A stretch of DNA of 64,000 nucleotides from a virus: IMG/VR virus record IMGVR_UViG_3300022746_000019, positions 1-64,000 of that record, one strand, 5' to 3'. The translations under genes were made by a program, and so were the position numbers. Below, piece by piece: positions 13,135-50,011 of the stretch. Each line of letters starts with the position of its first letter. The stretch's first letter is position 1. The notes under the pieces were generated by a model. It made no database searches. It was given only the letters and a program-made list of their open reading frames with translations, and was not told the origin of the DNA.

Positions 13135-13523
13135 TTGTTGAACTGCCTTGCCTGTCCAAGGGCACGAGAAGCGTTCGAAGCAAGGTTAGGGTTGGACTTA
13201 CCCCACGACACCCACTGCTGGTGGGTAGCCCCAGAAGGGCTTCCACCGCCGGGACGCTGTTTCTGCCATTCGCGAACCGCGGCAGCTCGTTCTGGGCTGT
13301 TCCAAGCGGTCTGTTCCTTGGCGATCTCACCCGACCGCACAGCGTTCATAGTCGCACTAGCGCGAGTAGCTCGTCCGGGTGCAGCCTTGCCGTGTTCGCG
13401 AAACGACGGAGTACGTTCGCCAGCCCAGTGGTTTGAGTGCTGGGTCTCTACCCAACCTTCGACTTCCTCGCGTGACGGACGCTGCAGGGGTGGGTTCTTG
13501 GCTTTAGCCGACTTTTTTGCCAT
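13131..13523 (-). CDS. hypothetical protein
   Basis: ATGA overlap with the next gene. Confidence 0.6.
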   Translation of the reverse strand: MAKKSAKAKNPPLQRPSREEVEGWVETQHSNHWAGERTPSFREHGKAAPGRATRASATMNAVRSGEIAKEQTAWNSPERAAAVREWQKQRPGGGSPSGATHQQWVSWGKSNPNLASNASRALGQARQFNK

Positions 13524-13561
13524 GAGTCAATTATTCACGCAGCAGAGGAAATTGTCTGCGC

Positions 13562-13705
13562 TTACTTGGCTTTTGGCTTTGGCGAAGTCTTTTTAGCCGA
13601 GTTACTTTTCGCAACCGGAGGCTTGATCACAGGGCCGATGGACTTGTAGGTGAAAGACTGCTTACCGGGCTTGTAGGCACCGACGATGTCTTTATCATTT
13701 TTCAT
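13562..13705 (-). CDS. Lys-rich small protein (47 aa)
   Basis: hand translation MKNDKDIVG...; GAGGAG RBS, ATGA overlap. Confidence 0.55.
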   Translation of the reverse strand: MKNDKDIVGAYKPGKQSFTYKSIGPVIKPPVAKSNSAKKTSPKPKAK

Positions 13706-13923
13706 GCTGTCTCCTCAAGGTCTGGCAGGGTATTCATTTTGAAACGATCTTTTGATGCTAGAACCGGAATTCCGCAGTAGAAGCATGCCCGGTGTTCCAT
13801 GCTGGGGTAGCCGCACCACCCACACTTCACAAGACCGCTAGTCTTCGTGTCCATCTCCTCAGTAACAGGGAGCTCAATCAGCGATGTCGCAGTAGCGTCG
13901 TATTTTTTCTTAAACGGCCACAT
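13702..13923 (-). CDS. Zn-ribbon protein
   Basis: GGAGG RBS, MWPFKKK start, CGWC...CFYC. Confidence 0.6.
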   Translation of the reverse strand: MWPFKKKYDATATSLIELPVTEEMDTKTSGLVKCGWCGYPSMEHRACFYCGIPVLASKDRFKMNTLPDLEETA

Positions 13924-14030
13924 GGGCTGTGGTCCTCCTAGTGATTCGCGAATACCCAATTATAGCCTCGTTAGGCTACTGCCTGCACCTATTAACTAAC
14001 ACTGGCGCCTGTGCCCTGGACCCCATCTAT

Positions 14031-14046
14031 TCGAACAAACGTTCTA
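14031..14046. promoter_or_regulatory. LexA (SOS) box, Gram-positive/actinobacterial type
   Basis: TCGAAC-AAAC-GTTCTA, one mismatch to TCGAAC-N4-GTTCGA, in the divergent intergenic region. Confidence 0.55.
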
Positions 14047-14065
14047 AGGGTGGGGGGGTGTAGCC

Positions 14066-14104
14066 GTAACCGAATCGTTACCATGTCCGTTACCGAACCG
14101 TTAC
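14066..14104 (+). promoter_or_regulatory. two tandem GTWAC-N6-GTTAC boxes at the head of the cassette array
   Basis: GTAAC-cgaatc-GTTAC and GTTAC-cgaacc-GTTAC; the same box recurs before every cassette. Confidence 0.75.
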
Positions 14105-14211
14105 AAATCCAGGTGGCAGAGTGACAGCCCCGCATGGCATGGTTCTCCATGTGAAGGCAACCACGCCGACACCCCGCCCAATGGGGCGGTGACCTATCAA
14201 GGGGAGTAGCA

Positions 14212-14496
14212 ATGGCTACACGCACTATCAAGCGCGGCGATGTCCGCGCATTCGTCGAGGCGACCCGCGGTCGTTTCGTTGGAGTGACATTCCGCAAGCG
14301 CACCACGGGAGAAGTCGTCTCCATGGGATTCACGACTAATCGTCAGTCCTACCTAGTCGGCGGCGACCCCGCCTACAACGCCGCCGAACGCGGCTTGGTC
14401 GTGGTCGTCAAGCCCCGCAAGGGATTCCGCTCATTCGGTATCGAGAATGTCATCGAATTCCGTTTCGGTGGCGACACTATCGTGGTGGAGGACTAG
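14212..14496 (+). CDS. SH3/WYL-like beta-barrel protein (cassette 1)
   Basis: AGGGGAG RBS; VTFRKRTTGEV...GFRSFGIENV pattern. Confidence 0.7.
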   Translation: MATRTIKRGDVRAFVEATRGRFVGVTFRKRTTGEVVSMGFTTNRQSYLVGGDPAYNAAERGLVVVVKPRKGFRSFGIENVIEFRFGGDTIVVED

Positions 14497-14498
14497 TC

Positions 14499-14705
14499 AT
14501 GTCACACGCGACCACGAACCCCGCTAACTACAATTGCTCAACCGACTTTGAGGCGTTCGACCATAGCGACGAGTGCGACTTCGAAGGTCCGGTGGACGGA
14601 GTCGAGGTGGGCAACCTCACTCCCGACGGATACCGTTCCGCAGGCTACACGCAACACTTTGTCTGCCCAAAGTGCAACGCTGAAGTTGAGCGCGAGCGCT
14701 ACTAA
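14499..14705 (+). CDS. Zn-ribbon-like protein (cassette 1)
   Basis: GGAGG RBS; C..ECDF...CPKC. Confidence 0.7.
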   Translation: MSHATTNPANYNCSTDFEAFDHSDECDFEGPVDGVEVGNLTPDGYRSAGYTQHFVCPKCNAEVERERY

Positions 14706-14754
14706 CAACCACGGAGGGGGGCGCAAGCCCCCCTCCCCTACCGAAGGGGCAAGC

Positions 14755-14970
14755 ATGATTCCCAAGACTGAACAAGCGGTCTATGTAGTACTCCGACTCT
14801 CAAGCCTGTTCTTTGGCGGTTGGTGTTTCTACTTTGTAGTCCAGAGCCTGAACACCACCGGACCTACGCATGAGCGGGCGGTGGCATGGGCGGTCGCGAT
14901 GCTGTTCATCACGACAACCTACGAACTAATCCGGTTTGTCGCCCTGGTTCTGAACGGCAGACTCCGATAG
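14755..14970 (+). CDS. small membrane protein (cassette 1)
   Basis: GAAGGGG RBS; two hydrophobic helices. Confidence 0.65.
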   Translation: MIPKTEQAVYVVLRLSSLFFGGWCFYFVVQSLNTTGPTHERAVAWAVAMLFITTTYELIRFVALVLNGRLR

Positions 14971-15008
14971 CGAGGGGGCGGGGCGCGAGCCCCGCCTCAC
15001 CGCGGGAT

Positions 15009-15069
15009 TGTTTGTGTTGGCTCCCACCCTCCCAGAGCCTAACCTTAAAAGGGATAGTAGTAGAGAGAG
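15009..15069 (+). repeat. cassette-boundary element copy 1
   Basis: TGTTTGTGTT-GGCTC[CCACCCTCCCA]GAGCC-CCTTAAAAGG-GAGAGAG. Confidence 0.9.
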
Positions 15070-15193
15070 TCGTTACCAAATCGTTACAGATCACCCGTTA
15101 TCGAATCGTTACAAAACCAGGTGGCGCGGCGGCACGGAGTACGGCATAGTACTCCATGTGAACGGGAAATACCCGACACGGAAGGGGAACATC

Positions 15194-15424
15194 ATGTCTC
15201 GACCATTGAGTGCAATCGCTCAAGAAATTGAATCGGTATGGGCTAAGCCGTATTTCGGCGCGGTACCGTATCTGCGCGCTATGCGTTCACTGTCGTCAAT
15301 CACCGATAGTTTCTTCGATGACACCGCCGAAGGCGTCGTTATCTACTTTCTCGCTAACGCCGCCACATGGCGCGGCGAGGACGCCCGCCGCATCAAGGCA
15401 GAATTGCGGGGGATGTTGAAGTGA
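15194..15424 (+). CDS. conserved phage early protein (cassette 2)
   Basis: GAAGGGGAAC RBS; RPLS.IA.EI...AVPYL.AM..YFLANA.TWRG.DARRIKAEL, a recurring phage family of unknown function. Confidence 0.8.
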   Translation: MSRPLSAIAQEIESVWAKPYFGAVPYLRAMRSLSSITDSFFDDTAEGVVIYFLANAATWRGEDARRIKAELRGMLK

Positions 15425-15531
15425 CCGTTATCTTCTCCGCCCCCACATGCGCAGAGTGCAAGCGCGTGTTTGATCTGACCGATGAGACCGATTCGCACGA
15501 GTGGTATTTCGGACACGACTGCGAAGTGTGA
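15421..15531 (+). CDS. 36-aa Zn-binding protein (cassette 2)
   Basis: GTGA overlap; CAECKRVFDL...EWYFGHDCEV. Confidence 0.65.
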   Translation: MTVIFSAPTCAECKRVFDLTDETDSHEWYFGHDCEV

Positions 15532-15594
15532 GACCCCCGGCGGCCTGAGACCCCCGCTCAGGCCGCCGGCCCTGCGCCTGGCGGGATCCGGCGT

Positions 15595-15656
15595 TGTTTG
15601 TGTTGGACAGCCCTCCCACCCTGTCTCAACCCTAAAGGGATTAGGGAGGGAGAGAG
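15595..15656 (+). repeat. cassette-boundary element copy 2
   Basis: TGTTTGTGTT-GGACAG[CCCTCCCACC]CTGTCT-CCCTAAAGGG-GAGAGAG. Confidence 0.9.
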
Positions 15657-15759
15657 CTGCCGTTATCAAATCGTTATAAATCCAGGTGGCTGCTAGCCGT
15701 GGACTATGGCAGGGTTCTCCATGTGAGCGAGAAACTCTCGCCACGGAAGGGGAACTATC

Positions 15760-16176
15760 ATGGCCGCTGTGAAACTCAACGTTTCGTCAGCCATTGCGCT
15801 AATTGAAGCGCGCTTGTTGGAGGCAGACTTGCATGAGTCTGAAGAAGCCCGAATTAACGCGGAATACGAGAACGCTATCCGCGAATGGGACTTGCGTTGC
15901 GCCAGTCTGATTCGGAATGGCATCTCTGCCGAACTCGTCTCTGCCAAGACAACTATGTCTGGAACAGTTGTTGTCACGTTTGAGCTGGACGGGTACGCTG
16001 TCCCGCCCATGCCAATCAAGGCGGGGAACCCATACCGAAGCCTTGGCAAGGAGTACCGTCGCGGGCAGTACGTGGACGGGCGTGAAGAACTTCAGTTCGC
16101 TCTCAAACTGCTCCGCGCATCAGTTGGGGATACGGTAACCCTCTCCGCCCTCAACGGAGTCAAGAACTATCTCTGA
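15760..16176 (+). CDS. hypothetical protein (cassette 3)
   Basis: GAAGGGGAAC RBS; followed by a GAAA-loop hairpin. Confidence 0.8.
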   Translation: MAAVKLNVSSAIALIEARLLEADLHESEEARINAEYENAIREWDLRCASLIRNGISAELVSAKTTMSGTVVVTFELDGYAVPPMPIKAGNPYRSLGKEYRRGQYVDGREELQFALKLLRASVGDTVTLSALNGVKNYL

Positions 16177-16234
16177 GTAACTCCCTGGGGAGGCGCGAAA
16201 GCGCCTCCCTTCGGGGCGGACCGGCCGGCCGAAA

Positions 16235-16293
16235 TGTTTGTGTTGAGTCCCGCCCTCCCAGACTCTAACCCTAAAGGGATAGGAGGAGAGAGA
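16235..16293 (+). repeat. cassette-boundary element copy 3
   Basis: TGTTTGTGTT-GAGTC[CCGCCCTCCCA]GACTC-CCCTAAAGGG-GAGAGAG. Confidence 0.9.
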
Positions 16294-16462
16294 TCCGTTA
16301 CCAACTTGTTATAAATACCCGTTGCGCCTGGCCAGGGCGATCTGGTATGCCGCCTGCCTGAGCTGTCGTTATCAAACTGTAATAAATACTAGGTGCGGAT
16401 GTCATCCCTATGCCCTAAGTTTCTCCATGTGAGCAACTCCGCTCACCAAGAAAGGGGACGCC

Positions 16463-16789
16463 ATGAGCGTTTATGTGACAGGACCGCAGATGCTGGTTCA
16501 GTCCGAATTGGTCGCTTCGGGAGAAGCCGCCGTGGTATGCATGGAGGAACAGGCTCTTCGCGAGGTGGTTGACCTTCGCGATGAGTCCACATGGAGCCAA
16601 TACCGCGAGATTGTGTTTGTAATCCGCGATTCTGGCACCATTGAGGAATCGAAGGAAACGCTGCAAGAAGTCTTTGCGCGTTACCCTTACGCGCTGGACG
16701 CAATCGTCGTTCAGGGCAATTCGTGGCTCTCGGCAATTTGCGAGGACACCGATTGCTGCCCGCCCGAGGGTAAGCCCGTCCACAACTAA
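16463..16789 (+). CDS. hypothetical protein (cassette 4), DUF4192-like C-terminus
   Basis: AAAGGGGA RBS; ends WLSAICEDTDCCPPEG. Confidence 0.75.
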   Translation: MSVYVTGPQMLVQSELVASGEAAVVCMEEQALREVVDLRDESTWSQYREIVFVIRDSGTIEESKETLQEVFARYPYALDAIVVQGNSWLSAICEDTDCCPPEGKPVHN

Positions 16790-16796
16790 ACAGAGA

Positions 16797-16832
16797 AGCC
16801 GCCCGTCCCGCGAGGGGCGGGCGGTCTTTTTT
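16797..16832 (+). terminator. intrinsic terminator
   Basis: GCCGCCCGTCCC-GCGA-GGGGCGGGCGGT-CTTTTTT. Confidence 0.85.
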
Positions 16833-16907
16833 ATGCGCCCAAGCCCCCGGTGGCCTAGGGATCCGGATCTGCCCAGCTGCCTGGGCGGGCCGGCCAGCCA
16901 GCAGAAT

Positions 16908-16966
16908 TGTTTGTGTTGAGCACCCACCCTCCCAGTGCTCTTATATAGGGGTTGGGGGGAGAGAGA
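16908..16966 (+). repeat. cassette-boundary element copy 4
   Basis: TGTTTGTGTT-GAGCAC[CCACCCTCCCA]GTGCTC-...-GAGAGAG. Confidence 0.9.
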
Positions 16967-17151
16967 TCGATCATCGTTATCGAATTGTTATAAAAGAGAC
17001 TTGAACCGGCCAGGGCCGTGTGGTATGTCGCGTGCCTGAGCTTTCGTTACCAAACCGTTATAAAAACCCCATGCAAAGTGGCGGGTGAGTGTGGAATAGT
17101 TCACCTCGTGAGCAACACCGCTCACCTCAAACTCCGAAGGGGAGTGACGCC

Positions 17152-17550
17152 ATGAGTATGTATGGCGACCCGAATCAGGCGGGTACACCTGACAACACCG
17201 AGTGCTATCGGTGCGGCTTGCTCGATAAAGAGGTCGCGTACCTCAAGGGCACGATTCAGAATCTGCGTGCCACGCTCGCAGAGATTGGCGAAGCCCTTTG
17301 GGACCAAGCCAAAGAAGACATTGACAACGGCGAACCCGTTGCCACCTTCTCATTCGACGACATCCGCGAATTGGCGCAGCAGTGCGGCGTTTCGACTAAT
17401 GTCTCGTTCGTACTCACTGCCTCATTCGAAGCCCGCCTCACGGCTCCGTATGGCACCACGGCAGAAGAGGTCCTCAACGGTCTGAGCATCGACTCTGACT
17501 TTGACCTCGACGACTACGGCTTCGAGAGCGAAGAACTCGAGCCTCGCTAG
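17152..17550 (+). CDS. hypothetical protein (cassette 5), paralog of 18562-18960
   Basis: 132 aa; YGDPNQAG.P...CxxC, coiled coil, ASFEA.L.APYGT. Confidence 0.8.
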   Translation: MSMYGDPNQAGTPDNTECYRCGLLDKEVAYLKGTIQNLRATLAEIGEALWDQAKEDIDNGEPVATFSFDDIRELAQQCGVSTNVSFVLTASFEARLTAPYGTTAEEVLNGLSIDSDFDLDDYGFESEELEPR

Positions 17551-17587
17551 CCGACCGGAGGGGGGCGAAAGCCCCCCTCCCCCACAC

Positions 17588-17704
17588 TTCCCGCCCCGCC
17601 CTCTCTCCCCCGTAGGGCGGGGCGGGAAACACTCCAAGGGGATGCCGGAGTGACCTGGCCCACATAAGCCGCTTGGCGGGGTACTTCCCCTTCCCCCGCC
17701 AAGC
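17588..17704 (+). ncRNA. candidate C-rich-loop twin-hairpin RNA A
   Basis: 15-bp stem with loop CTCTCCCCCGT; 11-bp stem with loop TACTTCCCCTTC. Confidence 0.45.
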
Positions 17705-17736
17705 CCGCCTGGAGCTCCGGATCCGGCGGCCGGGAA

Positions 17737-17785
17737 TGTTTGTGTTGACCCACCCTCCTCATTGGGAATGTGTGTGGGAGAGAGA
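17737..17785 (+). repeat. cassette-boundary element copy 5 (degenerate)
   Basis: TGTTTGTGTTGA-CCCACCCTCCT-...-GAGAGAG. Confidence 0.85.
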
Positions 17786-17892
17786 TCGTCGATCACCGTT
17801 ACGCAACTGTAATAAATCCAGGTGGCGTGGGGCGGAGAGATAGGGCAGGATTCATCCCGTGAGCAACCGCTCACACTTAGAAGGGAAGCACC

Positions 17893-18099
17893 ATGAAAAT
17901 TTGGATTAACGTCCACAACGGGCAGACTACCTGCCCGGAACACGCAGGCAATGAGTTGTCATTCTCAATTGAGAGTGCGCCCACGGCACTGCAGCACGAG
18001 ACTTCGTTCGGTACATGGGTAGCAGCCACGCCCGAAGAGGTCCAAGACTTGGTACTCATCGCGGGCGACGCCTGCGAGACTTGCGCGTTCGGATTTTAG
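17893..18099 (+). CDS. small Cys/His protein (cassette 6)
   Basis: AGAAGGGA RBS; CPEHAG...CETC. Confidence 0.75.
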   Translation: MKIWINVHNGQTTCPEHAGNELSFSIESAPTALQHETSFGTWVAATPEEVQDLVLIAGDACETCAFGF

Positions 18100-18101
18100 C
18101 C

Positions 18102-18341
18102 ATGAAGTTTGTAGTCCGCGCCGACCAGAAGATTGAGTACAAAGAATTCGTCGTGGAGGCCGAAATCCTCTCTGCCGCCCAAGAGATTGTGTCAAATTTA
18201 ATTGACATGGACTTTGAGGTCCAGTTCTCCACCTGGACAGTGGGCATCGACGAAGCGCCGGAAACTAAGCCGTGTGATCGGTGCGGAGAGCCGGTCGATC
18301 TGACCGAGACTTACTGCGACGCGCAATGCGCTGAGGGGTAG
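18102..18341 (+). CDS. hypothetical protein with C-terminal Zn finger (cassette 6)
   Basis: CDRC...YCDAQC. Confidence 0.65.
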   Translation: MKFVVRADQKIEYKEFVVEAEILSAAQEIVSNLIDMDFEVQFSTWTVGIDEAPETKPCDRCGEPVDLTETYCDAQCAEG

Positions 18342-18380
18342 TGATACAGCCAGCCTGGTCCCCGAGAGGGGGCCGGGCCG

Positions 18381-18440
18381 GTTTGTGTTGGAGTCCCACC
18401 CACCCTGACTCTTACCTTTCAGGGATTGGTGGGAGAGAGA
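18381..18440 (+). repeat. cassette-boundary element copy 6
   Basis: GTTTGTGTT-GGAGTC[CCACCCACCCT]GACTCT-CCTTTCAGG-GAGAGAG. Confidence 0.9.
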
Positions 18441-18561
18441 TACGGCAGATCGCCCGTTATCGAACTGTAATAAATCCAGGTCGCAATTGTCGGTGGCATG
18501 CGGCATAGTTCACCTTGTGAGCAACAAGGCTCACACAAGACTCCGAAGGGGAGTGGTCGCC

Positions 18562-18960
18562 ATGATTTATGGCGAGAACCCGATTCAGGCGGGGAATCCT
18601 GAAGCCGCAGTATGCGCGGACTGCATGCAGAAAGACAGGCGGATTGCCTCGCTGGAGTCAACCGTCCAGCGCAAGGTAAACGACATGACTGCTGTCGGGA
18701 AGCGACTCTGGGCTGACACCCAGTCTTGCATCGACGAGGGTTACACCGAAGTGACCTTCACTGTCGAAGACATGCGGGCACTAGTGGATCTGCTGGGTAT
18801 CAGCACGGACATCCGCGTGCGCGTCACTGCCACCTTTGAGGCTATCCTAGATGTGCCCTACGGCACTGACCCGGACTACCTGATCGAGTCGTTCAGTGTC
18901 GACTGTGAGCATGACATGCTCCATTTCGGGTTCTCCGACGAAACTGTCGAACCCGAATAA
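18562..18960 (+). CDS. hypothetical protein (cassette 7), paralog of 17152-17550
   Basis: 132 aa; YGENPIQAGNP...CADC, ATFEA.LDVPYGT. Confidence 0.8.
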   Translation: MIYGENPIQAGNPEAAVCADCMQKDRRIASLESTVQRKVNDMTAVGKRLWADTQSCIDEGYTEVTFTVEDMRALVDLLGISTDIRVRVTATFEAILDVPYGTDPDYLIESFSVDCEHDMLHFGFSDETVEPE

Positions 18961-19029
18961 CTTCCCCCGGAAGTTCCGCACCTGGGCATGTGTTTAAACT
19001 GCCCACCACTACTAAGAAGGGATAAGACA

Positions 19030-19089
19030 ATGATTACTGATCTATACAACAGCTGGACTAACCGCGAGACATGGGCGGTTAATCTCTAG
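19030..19089 (+). pseudogene. truncated gene remnant
   Basis: strong AAGAAGGG RBS, then MITDLYNSWTNRETWAVNL-TAG; resembles the YNGWTNxETWxVxLW phage family, with TAG at the Trp position. Confidence 0.55.
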
Positions 19090-19093
19090 AACC

Positions 19094-19170
19094 TCCCGCC
19101 CAGTCTCTTCCCCTTCAGGCTGGGCGGGATCGGCCCGCCGACCTCAGCCACACTCCCCCGGTGGCTGGGG
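19094..19170 (+). ncRNA. candidate C-rich-loop twin-hairpin RNA B
   Basis: 13-bp stem (one G-U) with loop CTTCCCCTTC; CAGCCAC/GTGGCTG stem with loop ACTCCCCCG. Confidence 0.45.
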
Positions 19171-19218
19171 GACGGCACCCGGCTGGGCTGCTGTGGCAGC
19201 TCGGCCGGGCGGCCGCTT

Positions 19219-19278
19219 TGTTTGTGTCGGACGCCCACCCTCCCTCCGTCCTCTTATTAGGAATTATGGGAGAGAGAG
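19219..19278 (+). repeat. cassette-boundary element copy 7
   Basis: TGTTTGTGTC-GGACG[CCCACCCTCCCTC]CGTCC-...-GAGAGAG. Confidence 0.88.
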
Positions 19279-19449
19279 CCGTTACCTAATTGTTATGAAA
19301 GATCCTTGACCTTCCAGGCAGATCATGCTAGGGCCGGGGATTCTGACGCCGTTACCAAACTGTAATAAAAGTAGGTGGAGAGTGTCAGTGCCATGCCGTA
19401 AGTTTCTCCATGTACCGAAGCCCAGTAGGTACAAAGAAGGGAGTTCGCC

Positions 19450-19680
19450 ATGAGCGAGCAAGACTTTCTCGAATTCAGGTTCGAGGATAGCGAGTATGTA
19501 CGAACCGCTCGAGTTAGCCGCGATGTAATCCAAGGCCTGCTTATCAGCCGAATGAGCATGGACAGAATCATCAAGGCTACTGAATTGGTAGCCCGCACGG
19601 TTACCCCTGAGAATCAAGAAGAAGCGAACGCTGGCGGCTCGTGGGCGTTCATCACTGCGACACGGAAGGTGAGTGCCTGA
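19450..19680 (+). CDS. hypothetical protein (cassette 8)
   Basis: AGAAGGGAG RBS. Confidence 0.7.
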   Translation: MSEQDFLEFRFEDSEYVRTARVSRDVIQGLLISRMSMDRIIKATELVARTVTPENQEEANAGGSWAFITATRKVSA

Positions 19681-19681
19681 C

Positions 19682-20041
19682 ATGGGTAACCGTTCTGAGA
19701 TTATTGTCCAGAGCGATTCATTCGCTAGCAACCTCGTGTTCTACGGTCACTGGTCCGGGACGGACAACCTGCTCGCAGTAGCGAGAGTCCTCCAGCGTAC
19801 CGACCGCGTGGGCGACCCCTCGTACCTCGCGGCTCAGGTTTACTTCGAGTTCGCTGTGAACCTCGGACAGACTGACGGCAACCTGTCGTTCGGTATCCGC
19901 GCCTCCGATGGCACTGAGTGGGTGATGTGCGATGAACCGCCGGTCTACCTCAACGCCGACACGGGAGAGGTGGTCTACCAAGACATGACTCTGTCGAAGG
20001 ACACTCTCAAGGGTCTATTGTTAGACTCGCTCACCAAGTAA
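19682..20041 (+). CDS. conserved phage protein MGxR...YxHWxG family (cassette 8)
   Basis: MGNRSEI...FYGHWSG N-terminal pattern. Confidence 0.75.
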   Translation: MGNRSEIIVQSDSFASNLVFYGHWSGTDNLLAVARVLQRTDRVGDPSYLAAQVYFEFAVNLGQTDGNLSFGIRASDGTEWVMCDEPPVYLNADTGEVVYQDMTLSKDTLKGLLLDSLTK

Positions 20042-20095
20042 TCAACACGGGGAGGCTGGAAAGTCCAGCCTCCCCTACCTAAGAAGGGAAACGCA

Positions 20096-20575
20096 ATGCA
20101 TACTGCACACTTAATGCTAGTCCGAGCTGAGTCCCCAGAGGGAGCTCAGAACTATGTCGAATCGCGGCTCACTCACGACACCACTGTCGAACAGTGGTGG
20201 GACTGGTTCGCCATAGGCTCCGACGGTCGGTATTCACTCTCAAGCGCCATTGAGGGCTGGACCGGGGACGACTATGTCGTAGGGCTTGAAGCTACCCCTG
20301 GGCTGTTCCACCTAGCTGTGGACACTTTCTACGAATACCGCCGGCAAGCATTCGACCGGCACTCAGCTGAGCTGGAGAACAATGGCTGGATGTTCAGGCT
20401 CGACCAGGATGACATGATTACCTGGCGGCTCCGCCGGTTTGCCGACCTCTCCGCGTCTTACTATTGCGCGGAGAGCCATGTCTATGACCTGCATAATTTC
20501 TCAGCTAACTTGGATCTGTTCATTAAGGACACGGGTACTGACTGGTTCGCTGTCCTGGTGGATTTCCACTACTGA
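20096..20575 (+). CDS. hypothetical protein (cassette 8)
   Basis: AGAAGGGA RBS; WWDWFAIG...VLVDFHY family pattern. Confidence 0.75.
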   Translation: MHTAHLMLVRAESPEGAQNYVESRLTHDTTVEQWWDWFAIGSDGRYSLSSAIEGWTGDDYVVGLEATPGLFHLAVDTFYEYRRQAFDRHSAELENNGWMFRLDQDDMITWRLRRFADLSASYYCAESHVYDLHNFSANLDLFIKDTGTDWFAVLVDFHY

Positions 20576-20655
20576 CCAACCGGCAGGCGGGAGTTGCGCC
20601 CCGCCTGCCGCCTCCCCGCCCGCGATCGTGCCCGCCAGCGCGATCGCGGGCACTT

Positions 20656-20704
20656 TGTTTGTGTTGGCCCTCCCACCCCGCTTAGGGAGTTGTTGTGAGA
20701 GAGA
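20656..20704 (+). repeat. cassette-boundary element copy 8 (degenerate)
   Basis: TGTTTGTGTTGG-CCCTCCCACCCC-...-GAGAGAG. Confidence 0.85.
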
Positions 20705-20840
20705 TTTGATCTGTCCAGGGGTATTTGTTACATTTGGGTAACGGAATGATCGTTATCGAATCGTTATGGTTAATTCGTTGACACTGTCAGTGCGTGCTGT
20801 AATGTCTGCCATGCATTCAGTACCTAGAGAGAGAGATACC

Positions 20841-21533
20841 ATGAAGGCACTCAAGCGATCGACTGATTCTAAAGTGGCTAATAGCCTTACCCCCGGAGGG
20901 AAGGGCAGAATCGCCAATTCATTCGGGCTACCCTCGGGCAGGGCGTACTCATGCCCTGCAGCTACTAGTGTCTGCGAGTCAGTGTGCTACGCGGGCAAGC
21001 TGGAGAAAATTCGCCCGACCGTCCGTAATCTACTCATGCACAATTGGGATCTCCTCCGGGAGGCGGATCGACATACTATGTATGACCTACTAGTGAGCAT
21101 GCTTACGGAATTCGACGCCGAATGCGACAAATGGGACGCAGAGAAGCTGTTCCGCATTCATTGGGACGGAGACTTCTTCTCCCCGGAATATGTAGCCGCC
21201 TGGGCAGCTGCGATGGCGGAATTCCCGCAGATTCGATTCTGGGTATATACACGGGTAGACTACGCTGCTAGGATCCTCCGCCATACCCCTAATCTCTCCC
21301 TGTACTTCAGTGGAGATTCAGAGAATGCCGAAACGGCAGAGAGAATGTCCGCCTTGGGCGTCAATATCGCCATGCTAGGGAAGACTTTCGATCTGGCACG
21401 CGAGGCACTGTCTGTACGGGCGGCAAAGTGCCCCGAACAGCGCGGGCAGATTGCCCTTGCCGGTGCCTGCGTCGCATGCAAAATCTGCATCAAGGGAAAC
21501 ACAAGCATTACATTCTCGATTAGTAAGAAGTAG
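20841..21533 (+). CDS. mycobacteriophage gp88-like (radical-SAM-like) protein (cassette 9)
   Basis: FGLP...SCP..T.VC...CYA, FRIHWDGDF, FWVYTR, C-terminal C..CxxCxxC. Confidence 0.75.
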   Translation: MKALKRSTDSKVANSLTPGGKGRIANSFGLPSGRAYSCPAATSVCESVCYAGKLEKIRPTVRNLLMHNWDLLREADRHTMYDLLVSMLTEFDAECDKWDAEKLFRIHWDGDFFSPEYVAAWAAAMAEFPQIRFWVYTRVDYAARILRHTPNLSLYFSGDSENAETAERMSALGVNIAMLGKTFDLAREALSVRAAKCPEQRGQIALAGACVACKICIKGNTSITFSISKK

Positions 21534-21541
21534 GAGTAACC

Positions 21542-21757
21542 ATGAGAAGGCCCAAAGTCGCCGAAGTCAACAATTGGACTATCGTAGAGGATATGTCTAA
21601 TGAGATCGCCACTGTCTGGGAGGCGGACAATATCCCAGACTTCTTCAAACTCACCTCACCGGCTCATGCCACCAAGCTCTTCTACGGAGAAACAGCGTGG
21701 CAGGACGCCCAAAGGCTTTCCAGTGATCTATTCTTCAAGGTCAGGGTAGCCTCATGA
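21542..21757 (+). CDS. hypothetical protein (cassette 9)
   Basis: AGGAG RBS; FYGETAW. Confidence 0.7.
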   Translation: MRRPKVAEVNNWTIVEDMSNEIATVWEADNIPDFFKLTSPAHATKLFYGETAWQDAQRLSSDLFFKVRVAS

Positions 21758-21760
21758 TCT

Positions 21761-21836
21761 GAGCTCGGGGCTTTCCCCTTCTCCCCGAGCTCCGCTAGGC
21801 GGTTCAGCAGTACCTCTCTCACTGCTGGACCGCTTT
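21761..21836 (+). ncRNA. candidate C-rich-loop twin-hairpin RNA C
   Basis: 10-bp stem with loop CTTTCCCCTTCT; 13-bp stem (one G-U) with loop ACCTCTCTC, then TTT. Confidence 0.45.
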
Positions 21837-21864
21837 GGCGTGTCTGCGCCCGGGCAGCCTCGCA

Positions 21865-21917
21865 TGTTTGTGTTGGCCCACCCTCCCCGAATAGGGAGTA
21901 TGTATGTAGAGAGAGAG
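21865..21917 (+). repeat. cassette-boundary element copy 9 (degenerate)
   Basis: TGTTTGTGTTGG-CCCACCCTCCCC-...-GAGAGAGAG. Confidence 0.85.
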
Positions 21918-22331
21918 CAATCGTTACCAAACTGTGACCGGCCGGGGCTTGACACAGCTCCCCGGCCTGTGCTAGGCGGCAAAATGATCTAATTTGTCGA
22001 CAAAGCGCTTTGTGCATACAGCTATTTGTGCATAAAGAGAGAGAGAAGAGAAGAGAAGAGAGAGCCGGCTCGGCTACTGCCCCAGCAGATCGAGGCTTAA
22101 ACGCGGGCAACACCAGGCCATACGCCTATCCTCCCCGTTCCTATCAACTAGCCCCCTATGTCCTCTATCCCTATCTCTCTCTATCTATCTCTTAGGTACT
22201 AAGAAGGGAAATTCATAAAGGCGCCGATTTTTACGCGGGGGCGACCCTGTATGTATTCGTTATCAAACTGTTACCGAATAGGCGGGAGAATAATTTGCAT
22301 AATGTCAGTACGGGCGATAATAATTTGCCCC

Positions 22332-22970
22332 ATGAACATCACACCCATTCGAAATGCCATGATCACTTGCTCATGCTGCGGCGTCCGTCTTGAAACACTG
22401 GTCTGCCCAGACATCACCCTTTGCCACGAATGCATCATGGAGTGCATCGGTGACAACCTTACCCCTGCCGATGACCATAATCGTCAAGCGGCGGCTGAAC
22501 TCACCAAGGGACTAGTCCGGGTCGCTGAATGCGACTCCTTTGCCTGCGGTGGTATGGAGCAGCCTTTCTACTTCGATAATGTCGGCAGTGCTGTCTGTGC
22601 AGTCTGTGATGAATATGTGCGGATTAACACCTGCGACTGGGAAGAATGCTTCTCCAAGTGGGGTCAGGACGACGGCGACGGCAATATCTACACATGGGAA
22701 CTCATGGACTACTTCGCGTCTCAGGGCTGGCAGGCGTTTGATGGACAATGGGGTCTCCATAATACTGTCATTACATCACTGATTAACGCAGGCGACGAGA
22801 CTGTCTACTTAATCTGGTCAGGCGACGATTCTGTAAACGCCGAAGAATCGCCGCGGGACTTCCTGCCCGCCAGCATGGTCCGGGAGCTTGACAGCAAGTT
22901 CAAGCCCGACACCTATGTACCATTCCCCGTTTCATTCATGCCCACAATTCTGTTCACAGAAACCAACTAG
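22332..22970 (+). CDS. Cys-rich hypothetical protein
   Basis: follows a GTTAT-N6-GTTAC box and TTGCAT..TAATAA; possibly leaderless; start uncertain. Confidence 0.6.
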   Translation: MNITPIRNAMITCSCCGVRLETLVCPDITLCHECIMECIGDNLTPADDHNRQAAAELTKGLVRVAECDSFACGGMEQPFYFDNVGSAVCAVCDEYVRINTCDWEECFSKWGQDDGDGNIYTWELMDYFASQGWQAFDGQWGLHNTVITSLINAGDETVYLIWSGDDSVNAEESPRDFLPASMVRELDSKFKPDTYVPFPVSFMPTILFTETN

Positions 22971-22978
22971 AAGGAATC

Positions 22979-23260
22979 ATGAGTAAATCAATAGAACTCA
23001 CAGTAAACGCAATTTGCACCTACGAGGTCACCTACAGCGTCGTGCTTAACGAGGATGACGCGTTTCTCCAAGACTATTTGGAGAAGAACAACTTGGCATT
23101 CGACGAACTCGTGGACACCATGGGACTTGCCGAAGCCCAAGAACTCTGGGGAGAAGCGCGGCTTCACCCTGAAACCGGAGCCGATGTCTACGGCGATCTC
23201 GTCCCCGTGGGCGAAGAGGAAATCACGAGTTTCGAGACCGTTGTCACAGAGGAGGGGTAA
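22979..23260 (+). CDS. acidic hypothetical protein
   Basis: GAAGGA RBS. Confidence 0.7.
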   Translation: MSKSIELTVNAICTYEVTYSVVLNEDDAFLQDYLEKNNLAFDELVDTMGLAEAQELWGEARLHPETGADVYGDLVPVGEEEITSFETVVTEEG

Positions 23261-24479: not shown

Positions 24480-24820
24480 TGAAAATTGAAGAAAATGTAG
24501 TCTTTGACAAAGACGGTAACTCAATCACGCTTGAGGAATGGGTGACGCTCTTCCGGTATGAGAACTACTTTAAGCTCGTTAATTATGGCGAGGACGGCTA
24601 CAAGGTTGTCACCAAGTGGACCGGCGTAGATACCGCTCCCCTTGAAAAGTCTGGCAGCAACTCATTCGCCTACAGTCGCTGGACACCCAACGAAACCCCG
24701 CTGATCAACATCTCATTCGTGTTCAACCAAGACGATGTGCTGCTGGAGTACGACAAGTACCCGGACTCAGCATCGGCTCGTGCGGGTCACGAACGACTCT
24801 GCAATATCTATTGCAAATGA
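24479..24820 (+). CDS. hypothetical protein
   Basis: coupled ORF ending at the terminator. Confidence 0.65.
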   Translation: MKIEENVVFDKDGNSITLEEWVTLFRYENYFKLVNYGEDGYKVVTKWTGVDTAPLEKSGSNSFAYSRWTPNETPLINISFVFNQDDVLLEYDKYPDSASARAGHERLCNIYCK

Positions 24821-24853
24821 AAAACGCCCCCCGTATTTGGGGGGCGTTTCTTT
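24820..24853. terminator. bidirectional terminator
   Basis: AAAAACGCCCCCC-GTATTT-GGGGGGCGTTTCTTT between convergent blocks. Confidence 0.85.
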
Positions 24854-26886
24854 CATCCTGTTATCAGTTTCACTTCGCAGGCATCCGTGGTGCAATATGC
24901 CTCTCCGATAGCATCCGCTGCCATTCCGGCGTAAACCCCAGACAGATCGATTGGGAAGAGCTTCATCTCCCCCTCGTCTACATATTCTTGTTCAGTAATA
25001 CGCGTGTAAGGCATTTGAGGATAGACATGATTACCAGACGGCAAGAAACTCACAGTCTTGAGCTGCCCGTCGTACATATGGAGCACAGTTCCAATGTGAT
25101 CCTTCTCTGTCTCTGGGTCAAAGGTGATAGTCACAGAGACGGAGTTGTCCGACCAGTACCGCTGTGCGGTGGACGCGAGAGCCATCTTCTCAAAGACAGT
25201 TACATCGCGCTCAGCTCGCTTGGCTTCGGACTTAATTGGGAAGAACACGACACTAGTTCCCTTTGGGTCTTCGCTGGCCGGCTCCACGCGATACTGAGCC
25301 ATCTTGAACAATGGCAGCATCGGGTCATTGTTGGAGAATCGAATAGCACGCAGGAAGTACTTTCCGCCCGGAGTCCAGTGGACGCCCGGACTCTCACCAG
25401 CGAGGATCGAGACAGTTCCCGACGGCTTGATAGTGGTGGTCTTAATAGACTCGCGCACACCCAGCCATTCGGAATACTTCTTGTCGTAGTGCTGAACAGT
25501 CGCGTAACCCTCGTCCATCCAAAGGCGGAGTTCGGGCATACCACGGTTGTCAGCGAAGTTAGCGACGCCAGACATCGAGGTTCCGATGCGGCGGTTGCGC
25601 TGCATGATGGCATTGGTCTCTTCCCAGTGGGTCGGGAGAAGCGTCACAGTCTTGGCGTAGAGGTAGGCGAACTTCAATGTGCGGTTGTAATCCTCAAGGG
25701 AGTCATGGCGGTTGAGGTAAGTCTCAACCAAGGTGCACATCTCGTACGACTCAAGGCTCTGCTCAGCGCATGGGTTGTAGCCAGCTGCTCGCCAGTCCTT
25801 GTTGTTAGGCTGATCGATAAGGCGTCCGTACTTGCGAGTGACATCCATCCAGATAACGCCCGGTTCTCCGTTGAGTGCGATGCCATCCACAATTCCCGAG
25901 AGGTCGTCACCTACAGAGACGGACACAGAGTTGTTGGACATCCAGCCCCAGCCTGGAGCGGCGGGGTCGTAGGAGTTGCGTTCTGGGTAAACCTCTGGGT
26001 TCTTGAGGTTCAGGAAGTCTGGATCATCGATGGAGCCAATGAGAAGTTCTGCGGAGCGGCGGACATTGCCCGATACGACGCAGACGCCAATGAGGTTGCC
26101 AATGTCAGCAATGTCCTTGCGGGTGACCTGCTCACCGGCGCGTCCCTTGAACAAGTTAGCAATGTGATTGTGCAAACGCATAAGTGGCTCGGGGCCAGCT
26201 GCGGTGCCGCCGAAAGTGCGGATGGGTTCTCCCGCCAAACGAATCTGGGAGTAGTCAAACTCCACGCATGGCTGATCCGACTTCAAGTAGGAGTTGATTA
26301 CCTCAACCACGGACTCTACCCAGCCTTCGCGAGTGTCCGGAATGACCGCGGTCTTGCACTCGTCCTTGGGCTGGTAGATGGTGAATCCCTTGTCCGCACC
26401 CTTCTGGTCGAACCCGACACCGACGCCCAGCATGGACGCTTCCATGAGGAACGCGAACGGAGCGGCGGGGTTGTTCTTCGTCATGCTCTCGGTGCTGACG
26501 AACGCACAGTTCTGCAGGGCGGCACTGTTCTTCTGCTCATTGACGAGCGGGGTACCCATGACCCACAGCCCACGACCGGGCGGAGTCCACTTGAGGTTGA
26601 ACAGTCGATCGAAGGCTTCTTTGGCCGACGCAGCGGCGCGGCTGTCATTCCAGGGAAGTCGGTTGGACTTGCAGTGATCCTTCTGCAGGCTGTACATACC
26701 GTTGATGACGCGCTCGCAAACATCTACCCAAGTCTCCTTGGTGCCGTCCTCTTTCAAACGACTGTAGGTGCGGAGAAATGTAATCTCACCAACGGAATTA
26801 CCGGCGGCATCTCGATACCCCCAAGGAACGGGTTTGCCTCTGTAACCAGCGACAAAGTCTTCAGCAAGACGGAACGAAAGTGCCAT
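24853..26886 (-). CDS. nrdJ: class II (B12-dependent, monomeric RTPR-type) ribonucleotide reductase
   Basis: PPGRGLW, LQNCAF, GNVRRSA, YNPCAEQ, TIKPSGT, C-terminal CTTDACE. Confidence 0.93.
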   Translation of the reverse strand: MALSFRLAEDFVAGYRGKPVPWGYRDAAGNSVGEITFLRTYSRLKEDGTKETWVDVCERVINGMYSLQKDHCKSNRLPWNDSRAAASAKEAFDRLFNLKWTPPGRGLWVMGTPLVNEQKNSAALQNCAFVSTESMTKNNPAAPFAFLMEASMLGVGVGFDQKGADKGFTIYQPKDECKTAVIPDTREGWVESVVEVINSYLKSDQPCVEFDYSQIRLAGEPIRTFGGTAAGPEPLMRLHNHIANLFKGRAGEQVTRKDIADIGNLIGVCVVSGNVRRSAELLIGSIDDPDFLNLKNPEVYPERNSYDPAAPGWGWMSNNSVSVSVGDDLSGIVDGIALNGEPGVIWMDVTRKYGRLIDQPNNKDWRAAGYNPCAEQSLESYEMCTLVETYLNRHDSLEDYNRTLKFAYLYAKTVTLLPTHWEETNAIMQRNRRIGTSMSGVANFADNRGMPELRLWMDEGYATVQHYDKKYSEWLGVRESIKTTTIKPSGTVSILAGESPGVHWTPGGKYFLRAIRFSNNDPMLPLFKMAQYRVEPASEDPKGTSVVFFPIKSEAKRAERDVTVFEKMALASTAQRYWSDNSVSVTITFDPETEKDHIGTVLHMYDGQLKTVSFLPSGNHVYPQMPYTRITEQEYVDEGEMKLFPIDLSGVYAGMAADAIGEAYCTTDACEVKLITG

Positions 26887-27107
26887 TAATTTACTCCTCT
26901 AAGGTTGCGTACTTTATTTTCACATTTTTGACACTCAACCCATTGGGACGGGAAAGTGTAAGAATCATTGTCTATGCGGGCGGTGGGGCGGTCAGCATCA
27001 TGCTCTACGCGAACCCCGCAAAATGACTTTAAGCCTGGGGCTTCCTCAATCTGATCGGTGGCATGCCAAACACCCGTACCACTGCGGACTGCGTAGTGCC
27101 TATTCAT
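26886..27107 (-). CDS. hypothetical protein
   Basis: AGGAG RBS; H..C..CxxC. Confidence 0.6.
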   Translation of the reverse strand: MNRHYAVRSGTGVWHATDQIEEAPGLKSFCGVRVEHDADRPTARIDNDSYTFPSQWVECQKCENKVRNLRGVN

Positions 27108-40523: not shown

Positions 40524-41575
40524 CAGTCTTCCTCAACGACATATTTAGAACCGGCCCGGACCGTCTCCAAAACTTCCTTCTCCAAAGCCTCGCGGAGATC
40601 GAGTTCTTCGCGGATAGACGCTACAAGGGCGTCTGCGCCCTGCCATTGGCGCTCTGCGTACCGGTAGTACGCTCCAGCCCTGACAATGACCTTGTTCAAA
40701 ATGCCCAACGCGACAATCTCTTTAGCGAAGTCAAAACTTCCGGGGGCTACATGGCCACCGTCAGAAAAATAGAAATCCACATAAGCAGTCTGGGACGGCG
40801 GGGCAATCTTGTTCTTAATAGTCCGGATCTTCATGGTCTGGCCGACGCGGCGCTTTTCCTGACCGCTACCTGCCTCAATCCAATCATCGCGCTTAATCTC
40901 TACGCGGGTAAAGGCCGCGTAGTCCTTGCCCTTACCACCCGGAGTAGTACGAGGGTCGCCGTACATGACGCCAACCTTATCGCGCCACTGGTTAATCATG
41001 ATTCCGATGAACGGGCGTTCATACTCTGTCAAACTGCGCTTTGAAGCGAGGCCTACCTTGCGAAAAAACTTGTTGGTGAGCATTGCGCCGCGACCAACCG
41101 TGAACTCGCCCATGTCCTTGTCGTCCTCGGCTCCTGGAACAAGCGCGGGCAGTGAGTCAATAACGACGCAGTCGACAGCCTTTGACTCAACAAAGTCAAC
41201 TACGGCGTCGTAGGCCTCTTCCATAAGGTTGGTGGACACTACGAACACGCGGTTGGTATCAACCCCGCACAATTCAGCGTAGGACGGAACCCATTGTTCT
41301 GCGGCTACCCATACGGTGGTAAATTCGGGATCGAGCGCCTGGTTAGCGGCAATAGTCTTCAATGCAAGGGCGGTCTTTCCGTTGCTGGCTTCGCCAATCA
41401 GTTCAACCCATTGGTTGGTGGGCCAGCCGCCGCCAAGAATCACATCTACAGCCAATGATCCGCTGGTGATTCGACCAATCAAATCGTCCCGGATTTCAGA
41501 CCCATTGACAACTGTGTCTGGGCCAAACTTCTTGTTGATTTTGGCAATGACTTTTGCAAGGTCAGGATTTGTCAT
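40523..41575 (-). CDS. recA: RecA recombinase
   Basis: GGGWP, GEASNGKT, VIDSL, INQ.R.KVG, TPGG, KNK.APP. Confidence 0.93.
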   Translation of the reverse strand: MTNPDLAKVIAKINKKFGPDTVVNGSEIRDDLIGRITSGSLAVDVILGGGWPTNQWVELIGEASNGKTALALKTIAANQALDPEFTTVWVAAEQWVPSYAELCGVDTNRVFVVSTNLMEEAYDAVVDFVESKAVDCVVIDSLPALVPGAEDDKDMGEFTVGRGAMLTNKFFRKVGLASKRSLTEYERPFIGIMINQWRDKVGVMYGDPRTTPGGKGKDYAAFTRVEIKRDDWIEAGSGQEKRRVGQTMKIRTIKNKIAPPSQTAYVDFYFSDGGHVAPGSFDFAKEIVALGILNKVIVRAGAYYRYAERQWQGADALVASIREELDLREALEKEVLETVRAGSKYVVEED

Positions 41576-49835: not shown

Positions 49836-50011
49836 TGGTAGGTATCTTTGAGAATTTGAAGTTCGTATTCAAGCGATCTGATAGGCGCCAAATGAAGACC
49901 AACCAATGTGTAGTTATCCACCATTTTTACAACCGCGTTGAGACACTCATTGAACCCAGCCTTGAAAACCTCTTTGTCCTCCGGGCTAAGGGCGTCGTAT
50001 TTTTCAGACAT
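49832..50011 (-). CDS. hypothetical protein (59 aa)
   Basis: hand translation MSEKYDAL...; coupled on both sides. Confidence 0.55.
   Translation of the reverse strand: MSEKYDALSPEDKEVFKAGFNECLNAVVKMVDNYTLVGLHLAPIRSLEYELQILKDTYQ

Follow-up and report, generated by a model that had tools for sequence, protein, structure and literature searches.

The DNA analyzed here (the window) comprises the first 64 kb, 64,000 nucleotides, of IMG/VR virus record IMGVR_UViG_3300022746_000019, which is 90,007 bp long and was judged 94% complete. Between positions 14040 and 22335 it holds an array of ten plus-strand mini-operons (cassettes), and the nine junctions between them carry one shared module. The order of the parts is constant, namely GC hairpins, a junction element with the invariant sequence GTTTGTGTTG, one or two boxes, a -10 hexamer, a 5' hairpin, a GAAGGGGA-type ribosome site and the one to three small open reading frames (ORFs) of the next cassette, so that a first-pass annotation of the window, which had described about ten cassettes delimited by one multi-part module of fixed order, was borne out. 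Each cassette is equipped with boxes, a -10 hexamer and terminator hairpins of its own. Within the literature and databases searched, the junction element has not been described before. The features are as follows (coordinates of the window, strand, description).

13974-14063 (+): array-start element 'S', GGCTACTGCC ... TTCGAACAAACGTTC ... TAAGGGTGGGGGGGT, which replaces the junction element before the first cassette
14066-14104 (+): module 0, two GTnAC-n6-GTnAC boxes
14138-14143 (+): module 0, -10 hexamer CATGGT, 33 nt past the box; CCAGGTG at 14109
14212-14970 (+): cassette 0, ORFs 14212-14496, 14499-14705 and 14755-14970, internal hairpin at 14713-14736
14212-14496 (+): first ORF of cassette 0, PHROG 2267, unknown function
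14973-15006 (+): GC hairpins (GCGA loop) closing cassette 0
15010-15069 (+): junction element copy 1, stem GGCTC/GAGCC around CCACCCTCCCA
15072-15150 (+): module 1, boxes 15072-15087 and 15097-15112, CCAGGTG at 15117, -10 CATAGT at 15145-15150
15194-15531 (+): cassette 1, ORF 15194-15424 and a 36-aa Cys-rich ORF at 15421-15531
15194-15424 (+): first ORF of cassette 1, PHROG 13953, homologues in 9 relatives' loci
15596-15656 (+): junction element copy 2, stem GACAG/CTGTC
15662-15715 (+): module 2, box, CCAGGTG at 15682, -10 CAGGGT at 15710-15715
15760-16176 (+): cassette 2, 138-aa ORF, no family
16236-16292 (+): junction element copy 3, stem GAGTC/GACTC
16297-16421 (+): module 3, boxes 16297-16312 and 16368-16383, -10 TAAGTT at 16416-16421
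from 16322 (+): inner promoter-like TTGCGC-N18-TATGCC of module 3
16463-16789 (+): cassette 3, 108-aa ORF
16909-16965 (+): junction element copy 4, stem GAGCAC/GTGCTC
16976-17100 (+): module 4, two boxes, inner promoter-like TTGAAC from 17001, -10 AATAGT at 17095-17100
17152-17550 (+): cassette 4, 132-aa ORF, paralogue of 18562-18960
17738-17784 (+): junction element copy 5, form without the variable stem
17798-17851 (+): module 5, box, CCAGGTG at 17818, -10 CAGGAT at 17846-17851
17893-18341 (+): cassette 5, ORFs 17893-18099 and 18102-18341
18381-18439 (+): junction element copy 6, stem GAGTC/GACTC, tail GGTGGG complementary to the loop
18456-18509 (+): module 6, box, CCAGGTC at 18476, -10 CATAGT at 18504-18509
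18562-19089 (+): cassette 6, ORF 18562-18960 (paralogue) and a 19-codon ORF at 19030-19089
19220-19278 (+): junction element copy 7, GTTTGTGTCG variant, stem GGACG/CGTCC
19281-19404 (+): module 7, two boxes, inner promoter-like TTGACC from 19306, -10 TAAGTT at 19399-19404
19450-20575 (+): cassette 7, ORFs 19450-19680, 19682-20041 and 20096-20575 (DUF7995-like, as a lead only), internal hairpin at 20049-20075
20657-20703 (+): junction element copy 8, form without the variable stem
20727-20805 (+): module 8, boxes at 20727 and 20752, then TTGACA-N16-TAATGT (20778-20805)
20841-21757 (+): cassette 8, GP88-family protein at 20841-21533 (Pfam PF17338, 1e-47) and ORF 21542-21757
21866-21917 (+): junction element copy 9
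21918-22331 (+): gene-free stretch, with one box, TTGACA-N18-TAGGCG from 21949, a TTGTCGACAA palindrome and a GA-rich tract
later part of the gene-free stretch (+): GGCTACTGCC at 22072, a CT-rich tract, a box at 22259 and -10 GATAAT at 22316
22332-22970 (+): first ORF past the array, 212 aa, Cys-rich, no family

The pattern GTTTGTGT was found nine times, always on the plus strand (15010, 15596, 16236, 16909, 17738, 18381, 19220, 20657, and 21866; span 15010-21873); the count given in the first-pass annotation therefore stood, while eight of its nine start positions were 1 nt too low. When GTTTGTGT-N20-50-GAGAGAG was searched in the whole 90,007-bp record, nine forward and no reverse matches were obtained and the reversed control gave none, all nine copies being confined to 15010-21917. 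The boxes that had been proposed (GTTAY-N6-GTWAY) occur 16 times against 0.45 expected, a number reached in 0 of 100 shuffles, and all 16 matches, one palindromic site being counted on both strands, lie within 14089-22274. The further parts named by the annotation were also recovered: CCAGGT[GC] in the promoter position of five modules (14109, 15117, 15682, 17818, and 18476), an xAxxxT -10 hexamer 32-33 nt past the last box in 8 of 8 such promoters, followed by a TCTCCATGTGAGC-like sequence, an exact GTGAGC..GCTCAC 5' hairpin in four modules, and 12 matches to the GAAGGGGA-type ribosome site pattern, one of which (20138) falls within an ORF. Terminator-like hairpins numbered 16, compared with 7.0 +/- 3.2 in shuffles, and from one to four GC hairpins precede every module; as predicted, several of these hairpins have GNRA loops, as RNA hairpins have. 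In 5 of the 9 junction elements the terminator scan also flagged the small hairpin with its GTTTGTG tail. A scan for the E. coli-type sigma-70 consensus remained at chance (5 sites vs. 4.7 expected, none at the conserved promoter positions), and because of this the promoters appear, as judged from their sequence, to be of a -10-only, activator-dependent kind; TTGAC-type -35 sequences with a 16-18-nt spacer are also present in five modules.

The junction element itself (47-61 nt in the window copies) begins with a short GC hairpin and an A/T run, after which comes the invariant GTTTGTGTTG, continues with an optional covarying stem that displays CCCNCCCNCCC and with a second variable hairpin (loops mostly TTC, TAAA or TAC), and ends with GGGA(A/G/T)T, a short-tandem-repeat tail that largely avoids C, and AGAGAG. 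The first stem covaries, as more than 20 different, fully Watson-Crick stems were found around one loop. At least five Watson-Crick pairs were formed in 30 of 40 distinct flank pairs (permuted partners: mean 3.5, maximum 10) and 0 of 2000 permutations reached the observed mean, a test that kinship among the sequences could inflate, though most stem positions vary from one to the next. Over 36 oriented long elements, the stems contained 601 Watson-Crick, 4 G.T and 3 A.C pairs (98.5% Watson-Crick), and the short-form stems had 2 G.T vs. 1 A.C, with no strand asymmetry. The element stems thus look more like DNA-level palindromes or perfect double-stranded RNA than like typical structured RNA, and since they are almost purely Watson-Crick, the two molecules are indistinguishable by this measure. 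No pairs were predicted when 34 stem-bearing copies were aligned with MAFFT and folded with RNAalifold, the variable stems being misaligned. Three other structural or functional assignments were tried and rejected. A pseudoknot between C-loop and tail is not a general feature: no more than 18 of 96 elements have the complementary tail (GGAGG or GGTGG), which is weakly associated with the type of core (p 0.09). Folding energy favored the minus strand (-14.8 vs. -12.1 kcal/mol), a preference that comes from G-rich/CU-rich pairing and to which the stems lend no support. A reading of the element as a sigma-70 promoter (TTGnnn-N17-TAACCT) fits the spacing of some stem-bearing window copies by eye, but fails for the stemless copies.

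The element is conserved throughout a family of uncultured phages. A first pattern search of IMG/VR returned 77 loci, 37 of which held a total of 97 full short-form matches, and when whole records were searched, every further record (5 of 5 and 26 of 26) proved to contain the element (1-9 copies each), all copies of a record lying on one strand under the two short-form patterns used. By our own tally, 48 other IMG/VR contigs carry 1-9 copies each, and several of these are complete genomes of approximately 96 kb. In a second scan we found contigs whose elements have this 5' half with CAACACAAAC closing it, a sequence that occurs once on the plus strand of the window, within a gene at 60809; the window copies have no second arm. 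Relatives also possess near-perfect hairpins of 66-142 nt that start with GTTTGTGTTGGG and end with CCCAACACAAAC (L137, L138, L139, L077, L048, L060, L070, and L016; G and L numbers are our handles for relatives' genomes and loci). Some long hairpins hold three inner hairpins sharing one loop (e.g., TTTAAA), and GAA triloops closed by C-G are frequent. All forms of the element occupy one slot, past the terminator and ahead of the boxes; G008-type genomes have copies on both strands. Outside this group, no relevant Rfam 15 match (E<=1) was obtained for window positions 13500-23000 or for five relatives' loci with long forms, blastn of one element against GenBank phages gave chance matches only (E=4), and the papers listed by a full-text literature search for GTTTGTGTTG concern other organisms and topics, none of them phages; within the literature searches made, no paper describing the element was found. 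Among 185,579 species genomes, 24 stretches were matched, of which 23 were chance matches and one lay on a phage-like contig binned with a Nanopelagicaceae metagenome-assembled genome (MAG); on this outcome a host-derived element was rejected.

In order to compare cargo, plus-strand ORFs were called and clustered in 27 arrays, and five near-duplicate arrays (G002, G004, G015, G027, and G030) were excluded from the adjacency counts. Relatives with identical cassette order and content, which the first-pass annotation had named as the observation that would speak against it, were not what we found: the order of the cargo families they share varies widely (X|Y, Y|X, XY and YX were all seen for one pair in different genomes, the bar marking a junction), and content differs as well. 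A neighbor pair was kept in 90 of 149 cases (60%) without a junction and in 72 of 203 (35%) across one (odds ratio 2.8, from counts that are not independent of each other). Six neighbor pairs were seen both with and without the module; where it is absent, only the 5' hairpin and the ribosome site are left, in a gap of 63-70 nt. The unit of TGAGCA..TGCTCA followed by GGAG also stands alone as a 63-70-nt intercistronic spacer in G011, G029 and G006, and this pair of 5' hairpin and ribosome site may be an independent mRNA-stabilizing or processing element. G003 has one extra cassette compared with G005 (approximately 80% identity), with similarity resuming 9 nt ahead of the junction element, and a distinctive variant of the element has one set of cargo on its two sides in G003/G005 and another in G024.

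Copies within a genome are only slightly more similar (0.27) than those of different genomes (0.19), with 0.21 in the window and 0.80 in G006, whose five near-identical copies make it the only genome that looks like a case of recent spread. Taken together, the array comparisons suggest that modules and cargo belong to an old, common pool and are reassorted; they do not suggest recent bursts or strong homogenization. Two freshwater DNA runs (low-depth contigs) contained joints of 16268>16908 and 21909>15595 (side 30-32), both of which most likely come from other phages sharing the element. Contigs of the same freshwater samples leave the 5' half of the element into other tails at 15626, 16268, 16937, and 21909, the loose end at 16937 carrying the tail of the L068/G001 copy, and because of such contigs several phages of the group appear to co-occur in one sample.

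No dedicated recombinase is encoded. The first-pass annotation had seen no integrase in the window, and this absence extends to the whole 90-kb record: no match to tyrosine recombinase, resolvase, Y1 transposase or TnpB families was obtained, while control genomes did match (PF00589 had 0 matches in the 90,007-bp record and its control was positive in 14 of 14 genomes). Of the RecA/Cas4-like/RuvC set on which shuffling had been proposed to rely, RecA is present (40757-41560), the RuvC-like match is weak and sub-threshold, and a Cas4-like PD-(D/E)XK nuclease gave no match in the genome at E<=0.01.

The closest known parallel is found in the PeSLs, composite promoter and stem-loop motifs located upstream of ORFans in hyperplastic regions of T4-type phages, which are reported to have proven promoter and terminator activity and a role in indels, replacements and mini-circles (Arbiol et al. 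2010, PMC2839356; Comeau et al. 2014, PMC4122927). Both systems consist of small, repeated terminator-plus-promoter motifs between ORFans of an early region, and both have a Shine-Dalgarno sequence at the 3' end of the motif. Closely related T4-type phages gain, lose and exchange sequence at the motifs, and relatives of the present phage may do likewise. A stable stem-loop terminator next to a promoter and a hyperplastic location upstream of ORFans are shared as well, whereas the strong sigma-70-consensus promoter with AT-rich upstream sequence given for PeSLs is replaced here by a -10-only promoter with boxes at fixed spacing. The present phage is also not T4-type, and it adds a conserved, structured element of 47-61 nt that is a long hairpin in relatives. 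Because of the different phage group, the lack of a sigma-70 consensus, and the extra element and boxes, we do not count the array as a member of the PeSL family, but the analogy drawn in the first-pass annotation holds in that the array works like the PeSL cassettes of T4-type phages.

We favor, as a moderately probable explanation, a PeSL-like hyperplastic early region in which autonomous promoter-terminator cassettes recombine at their shared modules. We infer that the module is regulatory: it would stop one unit and start the next, and its boxes would be sites for a host regulator of the GlnR/OmpR type or for a protein of the phage. Since 50-200 nt of sequence are common to all units, general recombination with the phage's own RecA could then swap, delete and add cassettes, as it does with PeSL cassettes in T4-type phages. 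For the junction element, a role as boundary or insulator is a tentative best guess, in which the small hairpin and the U-rich GUUUGUGUUG would complete termination and a conserved factor would bind the folded C-rich part.

Several observations weigh against this explanation. The adjacency bias, with its non-independent counts, would also result from selection for operon integrity with no role of the module; the only mappable indel lies in a pair of about 80% identity and gives no nucleotide-level breakpoint in a module, and three indels among near-identical loci lie away from the elements. The window copies are no more alike (0.21) than copies of different genomes (0.19), so frequent exchange between copies within this genome is not evident, and the promoters are not sigma-70-like, their start sites being deduced solely from the conserved xAxxxT hexamers. 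A simple boundary role furthermore leaves unexplained the invariance of GTTTGTGTTG across phages whose shared proteins are 50-60% identical, the 66-142-nt GTTTGTGTTGGG/CCCAACACAAAC hairpins of relatives in the same slot, and the 98.5% Watson-Crick stems with no excess of G.U.

The layout of the array also recalls integron attC arrays, which likewise have small cassettes in one orientation, structured separators with conserved ends and variable palindromic interiors, and variable cargo. It is unlikely, in our judgment, that the GTTTGTGTTG elements, whether short, asymmetric long or symmetric hairpin in form, serve as recombination sites of an integron-like phage cassette system without an integrase, in which the folded boundary DNA would be cut or paired by an unrecognized phage enzyme or by the RecA/resolvase set, and whole units would be excised, exchanged between co-infecting phages and stacked to 1-9 per genome. 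Doubtful to a slightly higher degree is the version in which the elements are attC-like, structure-specific sites for an unrecognized or elsewhere-encoded recombinase and the cassettes are excised as circles and reinserted. The one-orientation elements at cassette boundaries, with conserved ends and covarying interiors, would suit such a system, as would the near-pure Watson-Crick stems expected of DNA hairpins, the permuted cargo order, the same variant between different cargo, a copy number of 1-9, and the imperfect palindromes of relatives, whose 66-142 nt fall in the size range of attC sites. Three defining features of integrons nevertheless fail, and on this account the resemblance is one of layout only: there is no IntI with attI, and tyrosine and serine recombinases, Y1 transposase and TnpB are all missing from the 94%-complete genome; the element ends do not fit the attC core sites RYYYAAC/GTTRRRY, the long forms of relatives ending in GTTTGTGTTG and CAACACAAAC; and every cassette has its own promoter, while integron cassettes are mostly promoterless and depend on a common one. 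In addition, the window copies lack a second arm, and no circle or alternative junction was recovered in the low-depth contigs.

We give little credit to the idea that the element is a selfish palindrome of the kind known as miniature inverted-repeat transposable elements (MITEs) or repetitive extragenic palindromic (REP) sequences, colonizing inter-operon gaps with no phage role, with the short form as a decayed half. The 10-12-nt terminal inverted repeats of the relatives' long forms, the five near-identical copies of G006 and the presence or absence of the element between the same gene pairs are what such a palindrome would leave. These repeats are, however, found only in relatives and not in the window, most genomes hold old and diverse copies (0.27 within vs. 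0.19 between genomes; window 0.21), GTTTGTGTTG and the C-core of the half-element show no change even between distant phages, and slot and orientation relative to boxes and promoter are constant. Where the element goes, the whole module goes with it and never the element alone; no transposase was found, and no target-site duplication was apparent by eye in the flanks.

Equally little weight is given to a functional RNA, either a C-rich-loop regulator that would act as an anti-Shine-Dalgarno mimic by pairing with G-rich ribosome sites, or a processing or antitermination signal in read-through transcripts. Actinobacterial 6C and staphylococcal UCCC-loop small RNAs are analogues with C-rich loops, and in the array a covarying stem does display CCCNCCCNCCC while the cassette ribosome sites are G-rich (GAAGGGGA); a loop-complementary GGAGG/GGTGG tail is found in 18 of 96 elements, and G008-type phages place the element ahead of a hairpin at the 3' end of the unit. 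Strong terminators nevertheless precede the element and the promoter follows it, which should keep it out of most RNA, and it has neither G.U enrichment nor strand asymmetry; the tail-to-loop pairing is absent from 78 of 96 elements, with only the weak association with core type mentioned above, and neither Rfam nor the MAFFT and RNAalifold consensus identified a structure.

Many short early operons, each with a conserved promoter and terminator, are likewise known from the host-takeover module of SPO1, the pre-early region of T5 and the phiC31 early promoters with their conserved inverted repeats. To our knowledge, none of these early regions has the GTTTGTGTTG/C-core element.

The sequence beside the element varies by lineage, while the element is constant. 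The window boxes (5+6+5 direct repeats) fit GTnAC-n6-GTnAC including the A at position 4, and the GlnR box listed for S. venezuelae has the same consensus with a critical A at that position (PMC10704036). In the position of these boxes, sister lineages have TGTGA-N6-TCACA (L039, L034, L069, and L139), TGTGGATAA (L137, L138, L077, and L070) or other boxes, and their -35-region motifs differ as well. We take these two sequences to be identical to the CRP and DnaA-box consensus, respectively. The comparison suggests that early promoters of the group may be wired to different global host regulators, and, because a constant element adjoins lineage-specific boxes, that the element answers to a feature which all members of the group have in common, whereas the boxes follow a regulator that varies with the host or the phage. 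The likeness to the boxes of actinobacterial GlnR, an OmpR-family regulator, lies in the consensus, here set at a fixed 32-33 nt upstream of the -10 hexamer; a phage-encoded regulator could equally well be the reader of the window boxes.

Before the first cassette, the junction element is replaced by a conserved context of approximately 90 nt, composed of GGCTACTGCC, N18, TACCTG, CCTGG, a lineage-specific palindrome and TTAACCCTGGGGGGGT (also in L110-L134, upstream of each array). In 15 of the 19 non-redundant multi-copy arrays listed, GGCTACTG precedes the first junction element. The G-run of this array-start element and the C-core of the junction element are complementary, and in three G008-type phages the array-start element is on the opposite strand, about 850 nt from the junction element. 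At the other end, the last module is followed by 414 nt (21918-22331) with no credible ORF, as the first-pass annotation had noted. This layout recurs past the last copy in G001, G003, G006, G011, G016, G020 and G024, and consists of a TTGACA promoter, GGCTACTGCC with one or two TTGTCGACAA palindromes at its flanks, a motif resembling CCAGATTTACAGCC, and a GA-rich tract of considerable length followed by a CT-rich one. The TTGTCGACAA palindrome is presumably close to the actinobacterial DnaA box, and the stretch is a candidate for an origin of replication or for a non-coding RNA, although folding of 21975-22215 gave no significant result (z-score -1.0).

Cargo was analyzed by scanning the 16 cassette ORFs between 14212 and 21757, which gave one Pfam match (GP88, unknown function) and three PHROG matches, all of unknown function, and two Atlas look-ups returned phage hypothetical clusters only, with DUF7995 as a lead. 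The two paralogous cassettes announced by the first-pass annotation (17152-17550 and 18562-18960) share 35% identity over 130 aa (E 3e-30). Its truncated gene was not upheld: among the relatives' loci compared, the 19-codon ORF at 19030-19089 has no homologue, longer or otherwise. The GP88-family protein (20841-21533) is 55-63% identical over its full length to proteins of 13 relatives' loci and approximately 50% identical to one of a further locus, with two additional partial matches. A host-takeover or anti-defence role, which had also been proposed, is plausible for an early region but receives no support from the cargo scans.

The phage is an uncultured, myovirus-like freshwater phage of about 90 kb. 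Large ORFs match terminase, baseplate wedge, tail fibre, DNA polymerase I, helicase and DNA methyltransferase, and the sequencing runs that hold the stretch are freshwater metagenomes only. Its nearest cultured relatives are distant (the polymerase is 39% identical to those of Streptomyces phages), the GP88-family protein is about 50% identical to proteins of cluster-A-type mycobacteriophages and of Streptomyces phages, and a megablast search of the region against GenBank phages found no close relative. Owing to these actinophage-like proteins and the freshwater-only runs, the host is probably an actinobacterium; the one element-bearing contig in the Nanopelagicaceae MAG bin is, beside the similarity to actinophage proteins, a further hint. 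The early island lies on the plus strand from 14212 to approximately 24800 and is flanked by minus-strand gene blocks. We set its end near 24800 because the plus-strand ORF of 692 codons at 24811-26889 is an artefact that only shadows the minus-strand ribonucleotide reductase gene at 24853-26886 (PHROG 367, 1e-134). The [NDAG][AG]D[FY]DGD motif of a phage-encoded RNA polymerase is absent from all six frames. GATC is doubled in the array (14000-22400; 37 vs. 17 expected from the genome), GGATCC, CGATCG and CAGCTG cluster in the GC-rich spacers just 5' of the junction elements, and a DNA methyltransferase gene is located at 50004-51368 of the same genome.

Hyperplastic early regions contain the fastest-changing genes of phages, which are thought to be directed at the host, and their gene turnover has been documented mainly for T4-type coliphages. 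The same kind of organization in promoter-terminator cassettes is now found in unrelated, uncultured freshwater phages, with the order of the cargo visibly permuted. Two layers are added to it: a conserved, structured junction element with no Rfam or cellular match, bar one MAG-binned contig, and lineage-specific boxes that resemble the sites of global host regulators (GlnR-type in the window and, in sister lineages, what we take to be CRP-type and DnaA-type sites). If the element is a recombination or boundary signal, it would offer a sequence handle for finding early-gene islands in viromes, together with a testable model of how their cassettes move.

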